64,000 bases of DNA from Desulfurococcaceae archaeon (GTDB taxonomy: Archaea; Thermoproteota; Thermoprotei_A; Sulfolobales; Desulfurococcaceae): the NCBI GenBank assembly GCA_038888155.1, contig JAWAJB010000003.1, forward strand, positions 32,001 to 96,000, written 5' to 3'. The notes under the pieces are model-generated. The model was not told where the DNA came from. It searched no databases and saw only the letters and a program-made list of their open reading frames with translations. Both the position numbers and the translations under genes were made by a program. Position 1 is the stretch's first letter. Every line of letters starts with the position of its first letter. Below are positions 310-6,578 of the stretch, in pieces.

Positions 310-2451
310 CTACGATGATAAATTTAAAGAGATAGGATAGTACGCGCAGGAGCCCATGTCCTCAGGTGAAGTACAAAGCTCGAGCCTCAGGTAAAGCACA
401 GAGCTTTGACCTCCCCCAGTGAAGTACCCCCAGAGAGCTATGTGATTTTCTAGCCCTAAGTTGAGTTGCACTCTACTGGTTGACGTTGATACTGAAGCTC
501 CGCCCTCTACTGTCACGTTTGTCGACCTCGTGGTGCCCTCAATCCAAATATCAAGGTTTAAAGAAGTTGAGCCAAATACGCTATCCAGTAGAAGTCTAGC
601 GTAGAGAGTTTGGGAGGCGTTTACCCCTAGAGCCTTTAATGTATTCCCCGGCGCTGAGCCCGGAATAGCCGCATTCACTCTCGCGCTTGTCTTGTTAGCT
701 CCTAACTCCACTTCAATTGAAGGAGGGGCTCCTTGAGTTTCAACTCTGTACGAGTCTCCGCCGAGAATAGCGTCTGTATTGGGCACCTGATGCACGCAGA
801 TTAAAGCGTCATCAGAGCCCTTAACCGCTATTCTACCGTCAGTACCCGTGCCCACAACTACATCGTGGAGCAAGCTGAGCGACAACGACTGTCCAGGGGA
901 AGTCCCCCACGCTACTAAATTGTTGAGATTGTCCCACATTTCAATGGATACGCCAGCACGTAGGTTTGTGAACAATACGCCTCTTGGATCTGAAGTTGCT
1001 ATTAGGAAGTCGTCGAAGTACGCAGTTACAGCGTCAAGCGTCACGCCAATGAAAGCTGGTCTAAACCTTTGCGGGGCAGTTGACGACGCTGAAGCCGTGG
1101 CTAAGAGGTTGCCAGATGCGCCGTAGACTCTCGCTCTAATGTCTATACTGGTTCCCGTATCAGTATAGTTCACGACAAGTACGTACCACGCTACGGTGGA
1201 GTAGCCCGGGATAGTAGTATTTGCAAGAGTGTACCATCCCAATATGTTCTCCACGCCGTAGCTTCTTATGTAGAGCACCCCTGATGTGTGTACCTCTACT
1301 GCGTACACTCTGTTCAAGGGGCTCCTCCCTAACATAACTCCATAGTAGCCAGTTCCAGATGCCCACCTCGTCTTGGAAACGACCCACAGAGTAGTGTAGC
1401 CCGATAAACTAGTGCTGTAATAATATTGCGAGGCGCTGCCAACCCCCCCATCGTTGTCCGTTCCCCGCAATGCGTTACCTTTTGCACCTGCCACGCCGCT
1501 TATAGTGCTCCAGGTCCCACCTCTAGCATCCCATACAGGTAATGGATAAGCCTCGAAGTCTGTATAGGTTAAAGCCGTTCTATCAGTTCTAGTCACTGCA
1601 CACGTATATGCATATAGTGGTTGCTCTAGCGTTGCTGGTGGAGGCTGTGGGTTTATAGCTGGCGATAATGAGTAGTAGGCGAAAACGGATGCCCCTGCAT
1701 TGGATAGAACAACCCCTGCTACTATAGCTATGGGCGCGAAGGCTTGTAAAGTTGTCTTCGCGAGGAATTTCTTGGGCTTTAAGCCCTTGTTTCGTTCTTC
1801 TCTAGTTAATTGCTTGCCGTAAATGTATACAGCCCACATTATTGAAGCTGTTGATGAAGTTATTGAGGCGTAGAGCAGTGCTAGAATTACTGCAGGATGC
1901 GTGAAAAGCAAGTCGTATGCAAGGGTTTTTGTAGCGTTTATCCCCGTGTACTCTACTAGGCCTGCGAGCGTTCTAACCTTAAATACTCCGCCGTTATTTG
2001 CGTAGCTTAAAAGCACTCCAGCGTCGACGCTGAACGCCTGCGAGAGGTACCTTAAAACGCCCGAGGCCACTACAAGTGATGCCGATACGCCGTAGATTAA
2101 TGAGATAGAGGAGAGAGCATTCTTCCTTAGGCAAAGAAGTGCGAGTAGCGTTACGCCGACAAGGACTCCAACGTACGCTGTAGTAGCTACCGCAACTGCT
2201 TTAACTGCATCTAGGTTAGGCAACGCTATTGATCTGCCGTTGGTGTTGTAGCGTATTTCGTAGCTCACTATGGATAGATATCCATGAACATAGCCTGTAA
2301 ACACTATTTGCGGGCACAGAAGCATCAACAAGAATAGAGCTGAAACTGTAAAGCAAAATAACCCGCTGATAGATATAAGCGCCCTCAATTTCCTAGGTAC
2401 ATAGAAATCTTCTTCAGCGCTTAACCGTACCTTACTGTTATCTGCGACCAC
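310..2451 (-). CDS. Multi-TM protein fused to an extracellular pilin-like domain with a lectin-like insert (putative minor pilin/adhesin/anchor)
   Basis: N-terminal TM segments; internal basic+hydrophobic segment ending SVFA|YY; Ser/Thr/Trp-rich beta region; C-terminal similarity to 3563..4168. Confidence 0.65.
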   Translation of the reverse strand: MVADNSKVRLSAEEDFYVPRKLRALISISGLFCFTVSALFLLMLLCPQIVFTGYVHGYLSIVSYEIRYNTNGRSIALPNLDAVKAVAVATTAYVGVLVGVTLLALLCLRKNALSSISLIYGVSASLVVASGVLRYLSQAFSVDAGVLLSYANNGGVFKVRTLAGLVEYTGINATKTLAYDLLFTHPAVILALLYASITSSTASIMWAVYIYGKQLTREERNKGLKPKKFLAKTTLQAFAPIAIVAGVVLSNAGASVFAYYSLSPAINPQPPPATLEQPLYAYTCAVTRTDRTALTYTDFEAYPLPVWDARGGTWSTISGVAGAKGNALRGTDNDGGVGSASQYYYSTSLSGYTTLWVVSKTRWASGTGYYGVMLGRSPLNRVYAVEVHTSGVLYIRSYGVENILGWYTLANTTIPGYSTVAWYVLVVNYTDTGTSIDIRARVYGASGNLLATASASSTAPQRFRPAFIGVTLDAVTAYFDDFLIATSDPRGVLFTNLRAGVSIEMWDNLNNLVAWGTSPGQSLSLSLLHDVVVGTGTDGRIAVKGSDDALICVHQVPNTDAILGGDSYRVETQGAPPSIEVELGANKTSARVNAAIPGSAPGNTLKALGVNASQTLYARLLLDSVFGSTSLNLDIWIEGTTRSTNVTVEGGASVSTSTSRVQLNLGLENHIALWGYFTGGGQSSVLYLRLELCTSPEDMGSCAYYPISLNLSS

Positions 2452-3548
2452 TTCTCCTCACCTCCAAGCCTGTAGCTTACATCAGCGTAAACGAACTTGC
2501 TTCCCTCGGGAGGCTCGACAGTTGCAAAGCCGTGCTCGCTCACGACCTCCTGAATTGAAGCGTTCTTCCATGCGTCGCCAACGCCGTAGGCGTACTTTAA
2601 AGACACGTTAACAAATACCGGAAAACAATTCGGATTGTAGAATTGGAGGGAGCCGTTAACAGCCTTCACCTCTAGGTGCCTTGGATAAGCTCTAACAGCG
2701 TAGTTACCTTCAAGCCTCCCCACGTGATTCAATGTAGCGTAGACGCTTACGTTCAGCGAGCTTTCGTTATTTAATCTTTGAGCGACTTCACGCGGCACTT
2801 TCGCCAATACGCTCGATTCGCTGAGCAACGCGGGTAGCTCAACTTCGTCAATGTATACCTTAGCGCCAGTTAGCTGAAGGGAGCCCACGTAGCTTACTAG
2901 CAGCGTACACGTTTCGGAGTTGAGCTCCAGCTTAGATAAGTGAAGAACGGGGAGCTCAACTCGAGTTGAGCTCACAACAGGTTGCGTTAGACCGTAGACA
3001 ACTAGTATAAGTACGAGGATTGTAGCGTAAACCATAGCTGAGGCAAAGCCAACTAGCTTTACTTTTGCAACGTTAATTAAGCTAGCCACTACAGCGTAGA
3101 GGAATATCGGCAGCCAGATTTCCCTAGGTATGATGCACACAACGACGCCTTTAATCCAATTAAGTGATACCGGGAAAGGATCGGGGGCTGGGTTGGCGTC
3201 GCCCTTAGTGATAATGCAGTTAACTCCGTGAGGGCAGTCAGCAACGTATCTGTGAACAATGCAGGAACTACTAGTTAAGCAGTATACAACTACATCTCCT
3301 GCAGATGGCGGGCTTCTCACGTAGATTGCAATATCCCACCTACGAATAATTGGCTCCATGCTGCCAGAGCAAACAACGGCTCCCCCGAAAGCGCTGTAAA
3401 CTCCAAGGCGGGAAAGAAGAGTAAACAAGAAGAGAGCGGTGAAGACAACTAAGACGGTAGAGGGTAAAATCCTGAGGAAAACCAAAGCCAATGAACGACG
3501 GGAAACCTGTCCACGAAAAAACTGGTTGAATTCACGGGGAATACTCAT
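2421..3548 (-). CDS. Signal peptidase I, SipW/ER-type (S26B), with C-terminal extracellular extension
   Basis: SGSMEP (Ser), IVHRY (His), ITKGDAN..PDP motifs. Confidence 0.9.
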   Translation of the reverse strand: MSIPREFNQFFRGQVSRRSLALVFLRILPSTVLVVFTALFLFTLLSRLGVYSAFGGAVVCSGSMEPIIRRWDIAIYVRSPPSAGDVVVYCLTSSSCIVHRYVADCPHGVNCIITKGDANPAPDPFPVSLNWIKGVVVCIIPREIWLPIFLYAVVASLINVAKVKLVGFASAMVYATILVLILVVYGLTQPVVSSTRVELPVLHLSKLELNSETCTLLVSYVGSLQLTGAKVYIDEVELPALLSESSVLAKVPREVAQRLNNESSLNVSVYATLNHVGRLEGNYAVRAYPRHLEVKAVNGSLQFYNPNCFPVFVNVSLKYAYGVGDAWKNASIQEVVSEHGFATVEPPEGSKFVYADVSYRLGGEEKWSQITVRYG

Positions 3549-3562
3549 CTATAGCAGCCCCT

Positions 3563-4168
3563 TTACGGCGGGATCTCACTAGATGGCGTGTAAACTAAAT
3601 GCATGTTGAAAGTAGCTTGTTGCCCGCTAATGCTTGTTCCCTCGGGTATGTAAACCATTAAGTCCACTTCCCACATTGAATTACCACTAAGAGCTCCAAT
3701 TTGTTGGGGGTTGTTTGTGTTCGTACTGGTTAATTCAATAACTCTAACAGCTCCACTTGGTTCCCCCGGTTGAGGATAAGATGCCGGCAGATCTCTCGTG
3801 GCATTATAGTCATAGACTATTAGCCAAACCTTAGAGCCCGCTGGTATACTCCCACTCATTTGATCTAGAATTAGGTAAACATTGTAGGCCTTTGAATCCG
3901 TGTTGCTTATCAATGTCAAGTTCTTGTAATAAGTTGTTTGATAGGTTGGATGTACTGTAATACCTGCACTTGTTGAATCACTCCCTATGTTGACCTGTAT
4001 TTCCTTGTTCCCGAGGTCTTTCTGTCCAGCGTTGCTACCGAGGAGGAACTTTATCGGCGGCTCTACGGGTTGCACTACTAGTTGAAATGGGTAGTATGCG
4101 AAAACGCTTCCAGCTATAAACGATGTTGCTAGTAGCGCTAATAAAAACATGGGTATTCTCTTCTCCAC
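3563..4168 (-). CDS. Secreted TasA/AbpA-like fibre subunit (putative major pilin)
   Basis: Signal peptide ending GSVFA|YY, beta-rich mature part, directly upstream of SipW-type peptidase; GAGGTGA RBS. Confidence 0.7.
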   Translation of the reverse strand: MEKRIPMFLLALLATSFIAGSVFAYYPFQLVVQPVEPPIKFLLGSNAGQKDLGNKEIQVNIGSDSTSAGITVHPTYQTTYYKNLTLISNTDSKAYNVYLILDQMSGSIPAGSKVWLIVYDYNATRDLPASYPQPGEPSGAVRVIELTSTNTNNPQQIGALSGNSMWEVDLMVYIPEGTSISGQQATFNMHLVYTPSSEIPP

Positions 4169-4352: not shown

Positions 4353-5066
4353 GTGGTGCTTATGACCACCGAGCCTCTGTGGCTTTCGATGATTCTCGAT
4401 AGGGTTAGACCGGACCTTGAGGAGCTGTGCTCTGAGCTCGTCGTCTTAAAGGAGTGTAATTTAGTGTTGGACTCCCTTGTTGAATCCCACCCGCTGTGGT
4501 TTGAGGGTAAAAAGAAGAAGACTGTCACTGCCGCTATTCTCTATATTTCTTTGTTAGTTAGTAGAGGGCCTCGGAGAGGCGTTTTAAGAGAGGCTTTAGA
4601 TCTCGCCGGCATTTCAAAAGTTTCCCTGAGGGACGCTTTGTCGAGGCTAGTTGAAGTTGATTGGAGCCTCGGCGTTGTTTACTTCAACCCCAAGTTCTAC
4701 TCTGCTCTTAGAAAAAGAGTAGCTCTGCCAGGGTACGTAGTGCCGTTAATGCTCTCGGAAGTAATTAGGGCAAAACTCTCTAGGGTTTCGCCCGGTTTAT
4801 ACGAGTTCCTCAACGTGCAGTGCAAGAAGGGCGTTGGTAAAGACTGCGTATCAACTCTCCTCGAAAATCCAGCAACAGTTAGAGATATTATAATCAGCAA
4901 GTACGGGACGCCAATTGTAGCTAGGCGAATAGCTGAGAGGCTCTTTGCTTCAATAATAGAAGTTATAGGGGTCGAGAAATCGCCAGCAGAACTAGCTGAG
5001 CTTTTCACCAGCAACCCAGAGGAGTTACGTAAACTGCTTGCTTCTAGTGCCCGCAGCTCAAAGTAA
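4353..5066 (+). CDS. TFB/TFIIB C-terminal cyclin-repeat protein fused to a helical C-terminal domain (DUF3227/NitrOD-like)
   Basis: GKKKKTVTAAILYISLL...LREALDLAGISKVSLRDALSRL resembles TFB repeat 2 (GK.P..LAAAAIYIASL...QREVAEVAGVTEVTVRNRYKEL); C-terminal LLENP..VRDIIISKYG. Confidence 0.6.
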   Translation: MVLMTTEPLWLSMILDRVRPDLEELCSELVVLKECNLVLDSLVESHPLWFEGKKKKTVTAAILYISLLVSRGPRRGVLREALDLAGISKVSLRDALSRLVEVDWSLGVVYFNPKFYSALRKRVALPGYVVPLMLSEVIRAKLSRVSPGLYEFLNVQCKKGVGKDCVSTLLENPATVRDIIISKYGTPIVARRIAERLFASIIEVIGVEKSPAELAELFTSNPEELRKLLASSARSSK

Positions 5067-5138: not shown

Positions 5139-6578
5139 GTGCGAGGGAGATGGTACTCAATGGAGGCAGCGTTCACCACTGGCAACAAGGAATTAGACAG
5201 GTTAATAGGCCCCATTCACTCGAAGTACATGTTGCTAATTGTAGGCCACCCCGGTGCAGGTAAAACAACTCTCGCTAGTAGCATATGCTACGAGAACGCG
5301 CAAAGGGGCTACAAATGCCTCTACATATCATTTTACGAAGACAAAGACAAGTTCTACAGAAATATGGATAAACTAGGAATAGACTTAGCTGACATTGAAT
5401 CTAGGGGGCTTTTAACTCACGTTAAGTTGCCCGTTGTGAAATCCGCTGAAGTGCTAGGTATAGTGAATGAACTTATAGTTAAGGACTCCTACAAAGTTGT
5501 TGTACTTGACTCTATAAACCCTGTGCTAGAGCTTTACAGGAAGAGAGAGCAAAGGGCAATACTATTAAACTTCTTCTACAACTTGATAGATGCAATAGAT
5601 GGCTTACTGGTAGCAATCTCCGAGATTTCGTGGGGCAAGGAGACTCTCAACCTCGGCTCAATTGATTTCGTGGCAGACGCAATAATTTACTTAAAGCACA
5701 GGATAACTCGCGGATTGCTAGTAAGAGTGTTGGAGTTGAGGAAGATAAGGGGCTCGCAATTAAGTACAGCTGAAATACCCTTTGACATAGTCGAGAAAAG
5801 GGGAATTATCGTTTACGCTCCTAGAAGGCTGGAGAGGCCGCGCAGCGAGGCAGTGAAGGCTTTGAAAACATGCATGTTATTGGAGGACGCCATTGGGGCA
5901 ATATATAAAGGAGACATCATATCGGTGAACTACCCGCCGAACGCGAGGCCCTCCTTGGTGTTGCTTCCGCTCATTAACTTCGCAGTAATAAACGACATAA
6001 AGTTGCTTGGGATCTCGTACAGGTACTCCCTAGAGGACACTAAGGCGGCTGTAGAAGCCGCTTTAATTAAATACTACGGCTTAAGTCTAACTGAGGCAAA
6101 CTGGATCATTAACAACTACATGCGCTTGGAGTCCATCAATCCAGCAACTATTTCAATTCCGCAGATAGTTAGCTTTGAGATGAGGCTAGTTGAGAAAGAG
6201 AGACCGGGAATAGTGGTATTTCACGCGCGCGAAATCCCCTGGAGGCTTACACGCAACACAGATGAAGACGGCTACTGGACTTCTCTAGTGAACCAGTTAA
6301 CCTGGCTCGAAAACCATGGAATAACAACTGCGTGGATGTATAGCAGAGTAGACCAGCAATTTGTGAAAATGAGCGAAGCACTAGCAGATATCTCAATAAG
6401 GGCATACTATAAACCAGGCGATAAAGGTCTGAGGCAACTATGGTACACTTGGAGAAGAGGCCAAGAGCCAAGGATAGTAGACTTCGCCAGCCCAGTGACC
6501 CAGGAGAAAATACAAGAGTGCTCAAAAATGCTAAAGAGTTTAGTTCACGAGAAACTAGCTGGGGGCAGTTCAAACTAG
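5139..6578 (+). CDS. KaiC/RAD55-family ATPase with one intact and one degenerate domain (likely start ATG 5160)
   Basis: TGNKELDRLI, Walker A GHPGAGKT, Walker B VVVLDS, DFVADAII, RKIRGS; second domain lacks Walker A Lys. Confidence 0.9.
   Translation: MRGRWYSMEAAFTTGNKELDRLIGPIHSKYMLLIVGHPGAGKTTLASSICYENAQRGYKCLYISFYEDKDKFYRNMDKLGIDLADIESRGLLTHVKLPVVKSAEVLGIVNELIVKDSYKVVVLDSINPVLELYRKREQRAILLNFFYNLIDAIDGLLVAISEISWGKETLNLGSIDFVADAIIYLKHRITRGLLVRVLELRKIRGSQLSTAEIPFDIVEKRGIIVYAPRRLERPRSEAVKALKTCMLLEDAIGAIYKGDIISVNYPPNARPSLVLLPLINFAVINDIKLLGISYRYSLEDTKAAVEAALIKYYGLSLTEANWIINNYMRLESINPATISIPQIVSFEMRLVEKERPGIVVFHAREIPWRLTRNTDEDGYWTSLVNQLTWLENHGITTAWMYSRVDQQFVKMSEALADISIRAYYKPGDKGLRQLWYTWRRGQEPRIVDFASPVTQEKIQECSKMLKSLVHEKLAGGSSN

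Follow-up and report, generated by a model that had tools for sequence, protein, structure and literature searches.

A 713-amino-acid (aa) open reading frame (ORF) of a heat-loving Desulfurococcaceae archaeon appears to be a gene fusion within a four-part donor-strand pilus module, in which the terminal subunit would be released from the fused chain by internal cleavage, a reading to which we assign a probability of about 0.6. The ORF lies on the minus strand of a 64,000-nucleotide (nt) stretch of contig JAWAJB010000003.1 (assembly GCA_038888155.1, positions 32,001 to 96,000), referred to here as the window, and the module would consist of a pilin, a terminal subunit, a dedicated signal peptidase I (SPase I) and a membrane protein with four transmembrane (TM) segments, the 4-TM protein. 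Three tightly packed ORFs are found on this strand, encoding proteins of 201, 375 and 713 aa in the order pilin, SPase I and 713-aa ORF, the last two overlapping by 31 nt. The source genome, binned from a metagenome, comprises 2.42 Mb in 134 contigs, with a completeness of 97.4% and a contamination of 6.43%. The three genes and the parts of the 713-aa protein are the following, all on the minus strand and in window coordinates:

3563..4168, minus: major pilin, 201 aa; signal peptide (residues 1-20), the motif S21-VFAYYP..P..PP, then a beta body
2421..3548, minus: dedicated SPase I, 375 aa; TM1, catalytic domain, two TM helices and a C-terminal extension
310..2451, minus: fused ORF, 713 aa; four TM segments, TM5, donor motif and ectodomain
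1816..2451, minus: 4-TM domain, residues 1-212, four TM helices, from hydropathy; in relatives a separate gene after the peptidase gene
1744..1815, minus: basic cytoplasmic loop, residues 213-236, the putative n-region of the internal signal peptide
1690..1743, minus: TM5, residues 237-254, the putative h- and c-regions, ending in N-A-G-A254
1615..1689, minus: donor-strand motif S255-VFAYYSLSPAINPQPPPATLEQPL, residues 255-279, with the proposed cleavage site before S255
982..1584, minus: domain D1, residues ~290-490, a lectin of concanavalin A (ConA)-like fold, or laminin G (LamG)-type sandwich, from the fold search
757..981, minus: domain D2, residues ~491-565, small and all-beta, with strands at residues 237-310 of the AlphaFold2 (AF2) ectodomain model and DVVVGTGxDG and LGGDxY blocks
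358..756, minus: domain D3, residues ~566-698, pilin-body homologue, from the profile alignment to the pilin
313..357, minus: putative C-terminal donor-strand mimic, M699-GSCAYYPISLNLSS-713, with the family pattern G[AV]CVYYP[IVL]x[LIV]x[LIV]xS

By its predicted structure, the 201-aa protein is a donor-strand pilin of the Sulfolobus thread and Pyrobaculum AbpA type. Its AF2 model has a predicted local distance difference test score (pLDDT) of 89.3 and a predicted TM-score (pTM) of 0.80, and the best solved matches were 7pnb_A, the Saci_0406 thread (Z 14.7, root-mean-square deviation (rmsd) 2.7 Å over 159 aa; Foldseek E 1.1e-8), and 7ueg_A, Pyrobaculum AbpA (Z 12.2, 3.4 Å over 158 aa; Foldseek E 1.6e-5), the third-best solved chain reaching a Z of only 6.9. 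In both fibres, the subunits are joined through an N-terminal donor strand (PMC9715654, PMC9245690); threads additionally contain isopeptide links. The n-, h- and c-regions of a Sec signal peptide are all recognisable in the pilin, and S21 of the model superposes on D24 of 7pnb and T25 of 7ueg, which are the first residues of the mature thread and AbpA subunits, respectively (PMC9715654, PMC9245690). Single-sequence searches with the pilin returned no Pfam, NCBIfam or PDB sequence match, and a profile of 38 pilins had 7pnb_A as its best, weak match among PDB sequences (E 0.13), pairing A/SVFAYYP with A/DVIYYY.

The beginning of the pilin recurs in the interior of the 713-aa protein, in which A254-SVFA-Y259 follows a hydrophobic stretch and has SVFA-Y25 as its pilin counterpart. 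In a BLASTP comparison of the two proteins, the sole match joined residues 240-272 with pilin residues 6-38 (E 0.004). Two alignments, A1 of 17 homologues of the 713-aa protein and A2 of 38 pilins, were then compared as profiles with hhalign, which paired residues 239-279 with pilin residues 5-45 (probability 95.3%, E 2.1e-8). P268 and P271 are invariant in A1, F257 and Y259 are conserved in at least 90% of it, and the conserved part reaches about 18 residues into the mature protein, where it shows the P..PP pattern of the pilins. Among all ORFs of at least 80 aa in the 2.42-Mb genome, the pattern [AG]S[VT][FY]xY[YNQEH] was found six times, namely in the pilin and the large protein of three loci (contigs C3, C67 and C80) and in nothing else. 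The bin thus holds three paralogous loci of pilin, peptidase and fused ORF (window 310-4168, C67 2499-6467 and C80 2963-6670). The strand identity between pilins and their cognate ectodomains (0.42, n=17) was uninformative when compared with that of non-cognate pairs (0.37, n=272), some sites being mislocated.

The remainder of the pilin was found again near the C terminus of the same protein. An alignment of D3, made of the C-terminal domain cut from 92 relatives of an exhaustive profile search, matched residues 573-695 with pilin residues 52-196 (hhalign, 121 columns, probability 94.7%, E 6.2e-8, score 50.9), pairing IEVELGANKTSA with IQVNIGSDSTSA and LYLRLELCTS with FNMHLVYTPS, whereas the reversed pilin alignment and 22 column-shuffled ones scored at most 14.4 (E at least 0.15). 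In the 713-aa protein, IEVELGANKTSARVN stands at residues 579-593 and LYLRLELCTSPE at 686-697. The 17-row A1 alignment of the whole protein matched the pilin in the signal-peptide region only, so that the 92 rows were needed for the D3 match, and residues 280-572 and 1-236 did not match the pilin profile (E 0.098 and 0.41). A hidden Markov model (HMM) of D3, run over all ORFs of the genome, retrieved the pilins of C3 (independent E-value 1.8e-6) and C80 (2e-5) and nothing unrelated; it also retrieved pilins of other genomes. Additionally, the AF2 strands of D3 and of the pilin coincide one by one through this alignment. The predicted pilin domain is therefore split in the 713-aa protein, with pilin residues 5-45 corresponding to 239-279, pilin residues 52-196 to 573-695, and about 293 residues inserted between them.

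Behind D3, the ectodomain model has one strand more than the pilin (model residues 448-458, protein 702-712), placed right after the last body strand. When the tail profile (21 columns, 92 sequences) was compared with the whole pilin profile, the best local match fell on pilin residues 20-34, the donor strand, and paired MGSCAYYPISLNLSS with GSVFAYYPFQLVVQP (score 21.0, E 1.6e-4). None of 60 column shuffles reached this score (maximum 14.6), and the reversed tail scored 9.7. The last 15 residues of the protein probably mimic the donor strand and fill the groove of D3 itself. C693 is kept in 74 and C702 in 78 of the 92 aligned sequences, and carrying the register of the modelled pilin interface over to D3 would place C702 opposite C693, which fits a disulfide-stapled hairpin with the tail filling the groove in cis.

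The AF2 model of the ectodomain, residues 255-713, has three beta domains (pLDDT 87.8, pTM 0.67). Its D1, a two-sheet jelly-roll sandwich, resembles the CBM66 module 4b1m_A (VIA-align Z 19.1, rmsd 2.4 Å over 156 aa), the thrombospondin C-terminal domain 2rhp_A (Z 17.0) and peanut lectin 1ciw_A (Z 15.9); at Z 8 or more, 265 chains matched the ectodomain model, nearly all of them over model residues 36-236, and Foldseek returned legume lectins with TM-scores of 0.45-0.51. WYVLVVNY lies at residues 422-429 and YFDDFLI at 477-483. From its fold and position, D1 is a putative adhesin. In D2, the invariant columns are D530, V532-G534, G536, G539 and L563-D566. A first-pass annotation, made from the window's letters and translations, had already described the internal motif as a mirror of that of the pilin, later segments as matching the pilin, and the part between them as a ConA/LamG-type sandwich. 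Its quoted strings and residues were all located as stated in the translations, and the three observations are borne out by the motif, D3 and D1 results given above.

Other arrangements of these domains were also encountered. In three relatives of 355-403 aa (P0168, P0183 and P0188), a different middle domain is flanked by the signal peptide and donor strand on one side and by the C-terminal domain with its GACVYYP tail on the other; in this fibre class, terminal subunits look like modular proteins whose inserts can be exchanged. The lectin and D2 alone, behind an unrelated N-terminal region, occur in proteins of ~620-890 aa (L016, L021, L024, L025, P0097, P0100, P0104 and C68:3420-5693), which have neither the 4-TM part nor the pilin-like C-terminal domain.

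On the N-terminal side of the motif, Kyte-Doolittle hydropathy delimits five hydrophobic segments, at residues 28-46, 90-108, 115-133, 187-205 and 241-259. The loop at 206-234, which includes RNKGLKPKKFLAK at 220-232, contains 8 K/R against 2 D/E, so that TM5 would be oriented from inside to outside, like a signal peptide. The n-region of the fused forms, taken as the preceding 15 residues, has a median net charge of +3. The uncharged stretch before the site has a median length of 17 in 23 fused forms (14-22), 17 in 38 pilins (15-20) and 16 in 13 unfused forms, whereas the uncharged lengths of TM1-TM4 are 22-41. An internal translation start was also considered and rejected, since no ATG, GTG or TTG codon lies in frame between residues 206 and 255 of the window gene; a separate ectodomain could therefore arise only by proteolysis.

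The 4-TM part itself matches no known family. In single-sequence searches, the 713-aa protein had no Pfam, NCBIfam or PDB sequence match, and the best ESM Atlas score for residues 1-236 was 0.81, within the range often reached by shuffled proteins. At E up to 1, Pfam left four separate 4-TM proteins, one unfused ectodomain and two relatives with other inserts unmatched, and PF17231, the DUF5305 family of the TafG accessory protein, matched neither the 713-aa protein nor the four separate 4-TM proteins. In the loci examined, the gene for the 4-TM part always stands directly after the peptidase gene and overlaps it; we would guess that this part is a partner of the peptidase or the base of the fibre.

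The relatives point to the same division of the protein. A word-based search found 16 homologues, 13 of which (673-733 aa) span both parts, and the exhaustive profile search found 271 relatives at E ≤0.001. Of the 351 genomes of the class, 83 have a match. Relatives of 453-503 aa consist of M, a basic n-region, an h-region and then ASVFxYYP, and relatives of 196-224 aa end just past TM4; the word-based search with residues 1-236 had returned no such shorter relatives, which the exhaustive search did retrieve. The separate 4-TM genes encode 196-235 aa. The fused form is present in 14 of the 351 genomes, or 15 if one cut by a contig end is counted, and the unfused form in about 20. Whether homologues are fused or divided into two genes had been left undecided by the first-pass annotation; both forms exist, and the gene break of the split forms falls exactly in the loop before TM5, suggesting that TM5 is a former N-terminal signal peptide.

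This was verified at the DNA level in 22 loci from species-representative genomes and in the window genome's own loci. Eleven loci carry the pilin, the peptidase and the fused ORF. In L017, the pilin, ectodomain, peptidase and 4-TM genes run in one direction, and the same holds for L028 and L029, which come from complete genomes (pilin, ectodomain of 488-494 aa, peptidase of 372-395 aa and 4-TM protein of 207-211 aa). L023 has a pilin, a peptidase and a 235-aa 4-TM frame with its own stop, its ectodomain gene lying nearby on the opposite strand. In many relatives, then, the putative terminal-subunit gene, whose product begins with an ordinary N-terminal signal peptide, stands between the pilin and peptidase genes, and the 4-TM gene comes last; in the clade of the window, this gene has its place downstream of the 4-TM gene, with which it forms a single frame. 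In a tree of 22 DNA-verified ectodomains, the 10 fused rows fall on one side of a single branch (support 96/93; 95% of 200 bootstraps). L007 (stop codon), L010 and L014 (contig ends) and L015 (near copy of L017) were left out of this tree, as were L016, L021, L024 and L025, the ~620-890-aa proteins that share only the lectin part. L007 was rejected as a split gene: its in-frame TAG (L007 2456-2458; G165:C117) lies inside the motif, which reads ASVFVYY-stop-SALT, and a close homologue has Q at the position of the stop. The TAG could be a nonsense mutation, a sequencing error or a site of read-through, and would truncate the product just after the proposed cleavage site.

The neighbouring 375-aa protein is predicted to be a dedicated peptidase paralogue with intact catalytic motifs. 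It passes TIGR02228, archaeal signal peptidase I, with 57.9 bits against a cut-off of 51.85 (E 1e-15), and its SGSMEP, VHR and KGDAN blocks, which we take to be the catalytic Ser, His and Asp blocks, are kept across 13 aligned homologues. The genome carries five such peptidases, one frame of 154 aa and four of 369-418 aa. After two extra TM helices, the dedicated peptidases have a conserved extracellular beta-rich C-terminal domain (residues ~186-375, window 2421-2990). A pilin-like region has been described in the Tafi peptidase TafD (PMC11821415, PMC12337348); the profile of the C-terminal domain found here showed no significant similarity to the pilin, D3 or the middle part (E 0.4, 0.08 and 0.076).

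As for the site of cleavage, A254/S255 is more likely than A258/Y259, because small residues occupy position -1 in A1 and A2 and because S21 of the pilin superposes on the N termini of the mature thread and AbpA subunits. Of the 16 A1 rows in which the position preceding SVF is present, 15 show A and one shows G; among the 38 pilins, 37 show A there and one shows G. Were the cut made at the alternative site, after SVFx, then V, I, N, D, L or P would stand at position -1 in 10 of 23 fused forms, 12 of 15 unfused forms and 5 of 38 pilins. We infer that the cut is made by the adjacent peptidase.

The ectodomain was also modelled together with two mature pilins (residues 21-201). The interface score ipSAE was 0.86, 0.86 and 0.84 in three runs, and the best of three controls reached 0.01; a mark of 0.86 is reached by 116 of 157 solved complexes and by 2 of 215 mismatched pairs, a calibration that is only roughly valid for the alignments used and for a three-chain job. 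The three runs agreed in at least 95% of contacts, with a partner pLDDT of 85-86. In the ectodomain modelled by itself, residues 1-13 have a pLDDT below 50, and in the complex the freed N-terminal strand is confidently modelled in the acceptor groove of a pilin: the confident contacts join ectodomain residues 1-18 (protein 255-272) to pilin residues 66-83 and 183-196, with ectodomain 4-8 antiparallel to pilin 190-193 and ectodomain 11-17 along pilin 71-75. The second pilin copy also touches the ectodomain, and residues 21-36 of either copy are absent from the confident ectodomain contacts, residues that are not named in these being merely uncertain. Folding the ectodomain with the mature pilin had been suggested in the first-pass annotation and, as seen, places 255-272 in the groove at 0.86. 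Its further claim of an internal cut by the cognate peptidase is retained in part: TM5 has the features of a signal peptide and the enzyme is a dedicated one, but the proposed site moves from Y259 to S255 and the cut itself is deduced from comparison.

In the mechanism that we propose, the chain would insert with its N terminus in the cytoplasm and its ectodomain outside, TM5 being a fifth, N-in/C-out segment. The adjacent peptidase would cut after A254, as it would cut the pilin after G20, leaving a 5-TM remnant in the membrane beside it. The freed 459-residue ectodomain would then carry a flexible N-terminal strand (SVFAYYS...) able to enter the acceptor groove of a pilin, and its pilin-like C-terminal domain would be completed in cis by the disulfide-stapled C-terminal copy of the donor strand. 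Since its own pilin-like domain is already completed in this manner, the ectodomain could donate a strand but could not accept one. It would accordingly stand at one end of the fibre and present the ConA-like lectin domain, as an initiator or tip adhesin like TapA, Saci_0405 or TafC. The protein thus resembles a terminal subunit more than a minor pilin of the ordinary in-chain kind, and we infer its position in the fibre and its complementation in cis.

Several points weigh against this reading. The case for cleavage is comparative throughout, and the site finder gave 2 of its 12 points to a small residue at position -1, which introduces a slight lean into the counts at the SVFx site; the A1 and A2 column counts at -1 are free of this bias. 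The motif of the window has YYS where the family has YYP. The complex may pass by likeness, because the pilin is 21-22% identical to the solved filament 7pnb, and the filling of the D3 groove by the C-terminal strand is read from strand order and sequence profiles. Finally, a tree of protein records (22 fused and 15 'split') requires 7 changes between the two forms, at least 4 of them forced by well-supported branches, which could reflect secondary fissions or truncated gene calls among the 'split' records. More weight was given to the DNA-verified tree, some of the 'split' rows being unverified gene calls.

Among the alternatives, the one that survives best, and that we nevertheless regard as unlikely, is that TM5 is never cleaved and serves as a permanent anchor, the tethered ectodomain plugging the groove of the basal pilin in a TafF-like role. 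The strand begins directly behind the membrane segment, the locus offers no other candidate anchor with a pilin-like acceptor domain, cleavage itself is deduced by comparison, and Tafi fibres have been proposed to end in a membrane-anchored subunit (PMC11821415). However, the counterpart of TM5 in the unfused relatives is an ordinary N-terminal signal peptide, TM5 is as short as the signal peptide of the pilins (median 17, against 22-41 for the TM helices), position -1 is A or G in 16 of 16 A1 rows, and the aligned residue is the mature N terminus in the solved threads. Additionally, a sugar-binding fold held at the membrane face would have no obvious use.

Somewhat less probable still is that the ectodomain is cleaved and built into the chain as a minor pilin, its C-terminal strand being displaced by donor-strand exchange and its lectins distributed along the fibre. 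Chaperone-usher pili normally assemble by strand displacement, D3 is a homologue of the entire pilin body, and the second pilin copy also contacts the ectodomain in the complex model. On the other hand, the last body strand and the cis strand behind it form a hairpin that carries the conserved cysteines (74/92 and 78/92), and pilin residues 21-36 are not among the confident ectodomain contacts, although residues missing from these are only uncertain. For TapA, whose fold is complete and whose N-terminal strand is free, the sole possible role is to begin a filament (PMC10151520). The donor-strand minor pilin with an inserted domain that the first-pass annotation had envisaged is therefore kept as regards the donor strand and the insert, but an in-chain role is less likely than that of a terminal subunit.

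It is far less probable that the motif is shared only because the peptidase recognises it or because it directs sorting, and that the ectodomain is a free secreted or S-layer-bound lectin outside the fibre. The motif does span the cleavage site and no fibre has been isolated from these organisms, but conservation continues for about 18 residues into the mature protein with the P..PP pattern of the pilin, D3 is a homologue of the pilin body, and the complex model buries 255-272 in the groove (0.86, against 0.01 for the best control). Furthermore, in the loci examined the ectodomain gene always accompanies a pilin gene. An artefact of sequencing, assembly or gene calling that joins two genes, which the first-pass annotation had listed as a refutation and which a metagenome bin with 6.43% contamination and one relative with an in-frame TAG in the motif might recall, is already refuted by the same open frame in three loci here and in 13 further genomes, under independent record names and in 14 of 351 genomes overall, kept over branch lengths of 0.2-0.6 changes per site.

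Comparison with known systems places the proposed module among donor-strand fibres and also separates it from each of them. As in the S. acidocaldarius thread, an N-terminal donor strand with aromatic residues follows directly on the predicted SPase I site. The thread locus also has an accessory subunit, the putative cap Saci_0405, whose fold is pilin-like and which has an N-terminal strand but lacks a free acceptor site (PMC9715654), as would be the case for the ectodomain here. Saci_0405, however, is a small pilin-like protein without a predicted signal peptide (PMC9715654), whereas the locus described here has a lectin insert of ~290 residues, a probable cis C-terminal strand, a fusion to a 4-TM protein and a peptidase encoded in the locus. 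The tapA-sipW-tasA system of Bacillus subtilis (PMC10151520) and the AbpA/AbpB system of Pyrobaculum (PMC9245690) combine, as the proposed module would, a major donor-strand subunit with a dedicated or linked peptidase, whose gene overlaps a partner gene, and a minor protein (TapA or AbpB) of complete fold that donates a disordered N-terminal strand and only begins the filament. Unlike the protein described here, TapA and AbpB are ordinary secreted proteins whose folds do not duplicate the pilin, and the parts of the two papers cited describe no 4-TM partner, internal signal peptide or lectin insert; in the ABP locus, its authors found no dedicated peptidase (PMC9245690).

The Tafi system of haloarchaea comprises the tip TafC, the adapter TafE, TafA, the anchor TafF, the peptidase TafD and TafG, a DUF5305 protein (PMC11821415, PMC12337348). 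As here, pilin-like and laminin-G-like domains meet in its tip protein TafC (PMC11821415), there is a dedicated peptidase, which the Tafi fibre needs, and a membrane accessory protein stands beside the peptidase. The order of domains differs, the pilin-like domain being N-terminal in TafC (PMC11821415); the accessory protein is of the DUF5305 type and not a 4-TM protein; the anchor TafF has C-terminal TM helices; and the parts of the Tafi papers cited report no fusion through an internal signal peptide. Moreover, Tafi subunits use Tat signals, whereas the Tat-type motif [ST]RRx[FLIVM][LIVMK] was found before the cleavage site in none of the 38 pilins and none of the 23 fused forms. In a preprint on AbpX, archaeal loci with a peptidase, an accessory protein, and tip and minor subunits are described (10.64898/2026.01.04.697558).

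As for the processing itself, the literature searched showed only eukaryotic and viral cases of internal signal-peptidase cleavage, together with one in-vitro study of E. coli lactose permease, and no such fusion or internal SPase I cleavage was found for prokaryotic pili, the AbpX preprint and the supplements of PMC9715654 possibly holding related genes. In the polyproteins of enveloped viruses and in some proteins of the endoplasmic reticulum, signal peptidase cuts at internal signal peptides. There, as proposed here, a membrane segment preceded by other TM helices serves as a signal peptide, and its cleavage separates a membrane part from a lumenal or external one; the present case would differ in being a cellular archaeal protein, cut by a paralogous neighbour peptidase, with a pilus subunit as its proposed product. 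Two features are new here: an internal signal peptide joins the 4-TM protein covalently to the ectodomain, and the 4-TM protein is constantly paired with the peptidase.

Some further observations concern the surroundings of the locus. Records labelled Nezhaarchaeota (P0027-P0031, L010) include near-identical counterparts of the C67 pilin and peptidase, and contig C67 may therefore have been mis-binned or recently transferred. On the plus strand, divergently from the window's pilin gene, lie a weakly matching TFIIB-repeat protein (window 4353-5066, E 0.015, below the cut-off) and a 479-aa KaiC/ArlH-like ATPase (window 5139-6578, PF06745, E 1.8e-33); the related loci fetched have no counterpart of these TFIIB-like and KaiC-like genes, which were therefore left out of the module. 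The same genome also has a second fibre locus of a different type (L001, contig C71:3488-6838), which encodes a signal peptidase of 395 aa whose long N-terminal part is polytopic, a 340-aa protein that is a true DUF5305 member (PF17231, E 5.8e-15), and, in a further ORF, a beta-rich product of 195 aa. This make-up is the one given for the AbpX (10.64898/2026.01.04.697558) and Tafi (PMC11821415, PMC12337348) loci.

For archaeal donor-strand fibres (threads, ABP, Tafi and AbpX), initiation, anchoring and assembly in the absence of a chaperone or usher are described as open questions (PMC9715654, PMC9245690, PMC11821415). A wider and tentative idea, which we consider doubtful for the present, is that SPase I acts here as an assembly enzyme on a prokaryotic polyprotein, so that cleavage would drive polymerisation without chaperone, usher or ATPase. 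In that case, each new 4-TM platform would be made joined to exactly one initiator or tip subunit, the fusion fixing the ratio at one tip per platform. The translationally coupled peptidase would cut the internal signal peptide, and the freed strand would prime a membrane-held pilin precursor; each later signal-peptide cleavage would then release the next donor strand at the base of the fibre.

Independently of this idea, the locus offers a minimal conserved four-part module and a candidate initiator or tip subunit with copies of the donor strand at both of its ends. The natural pair of fused and split forms shows the tip subunit to belong with the 4-TM protein and the peptidase. If it occurs, internal cleavage by SPase I would mean that a cellular protein of a prokaryote is processed as a polyprotein, which would be unusual.

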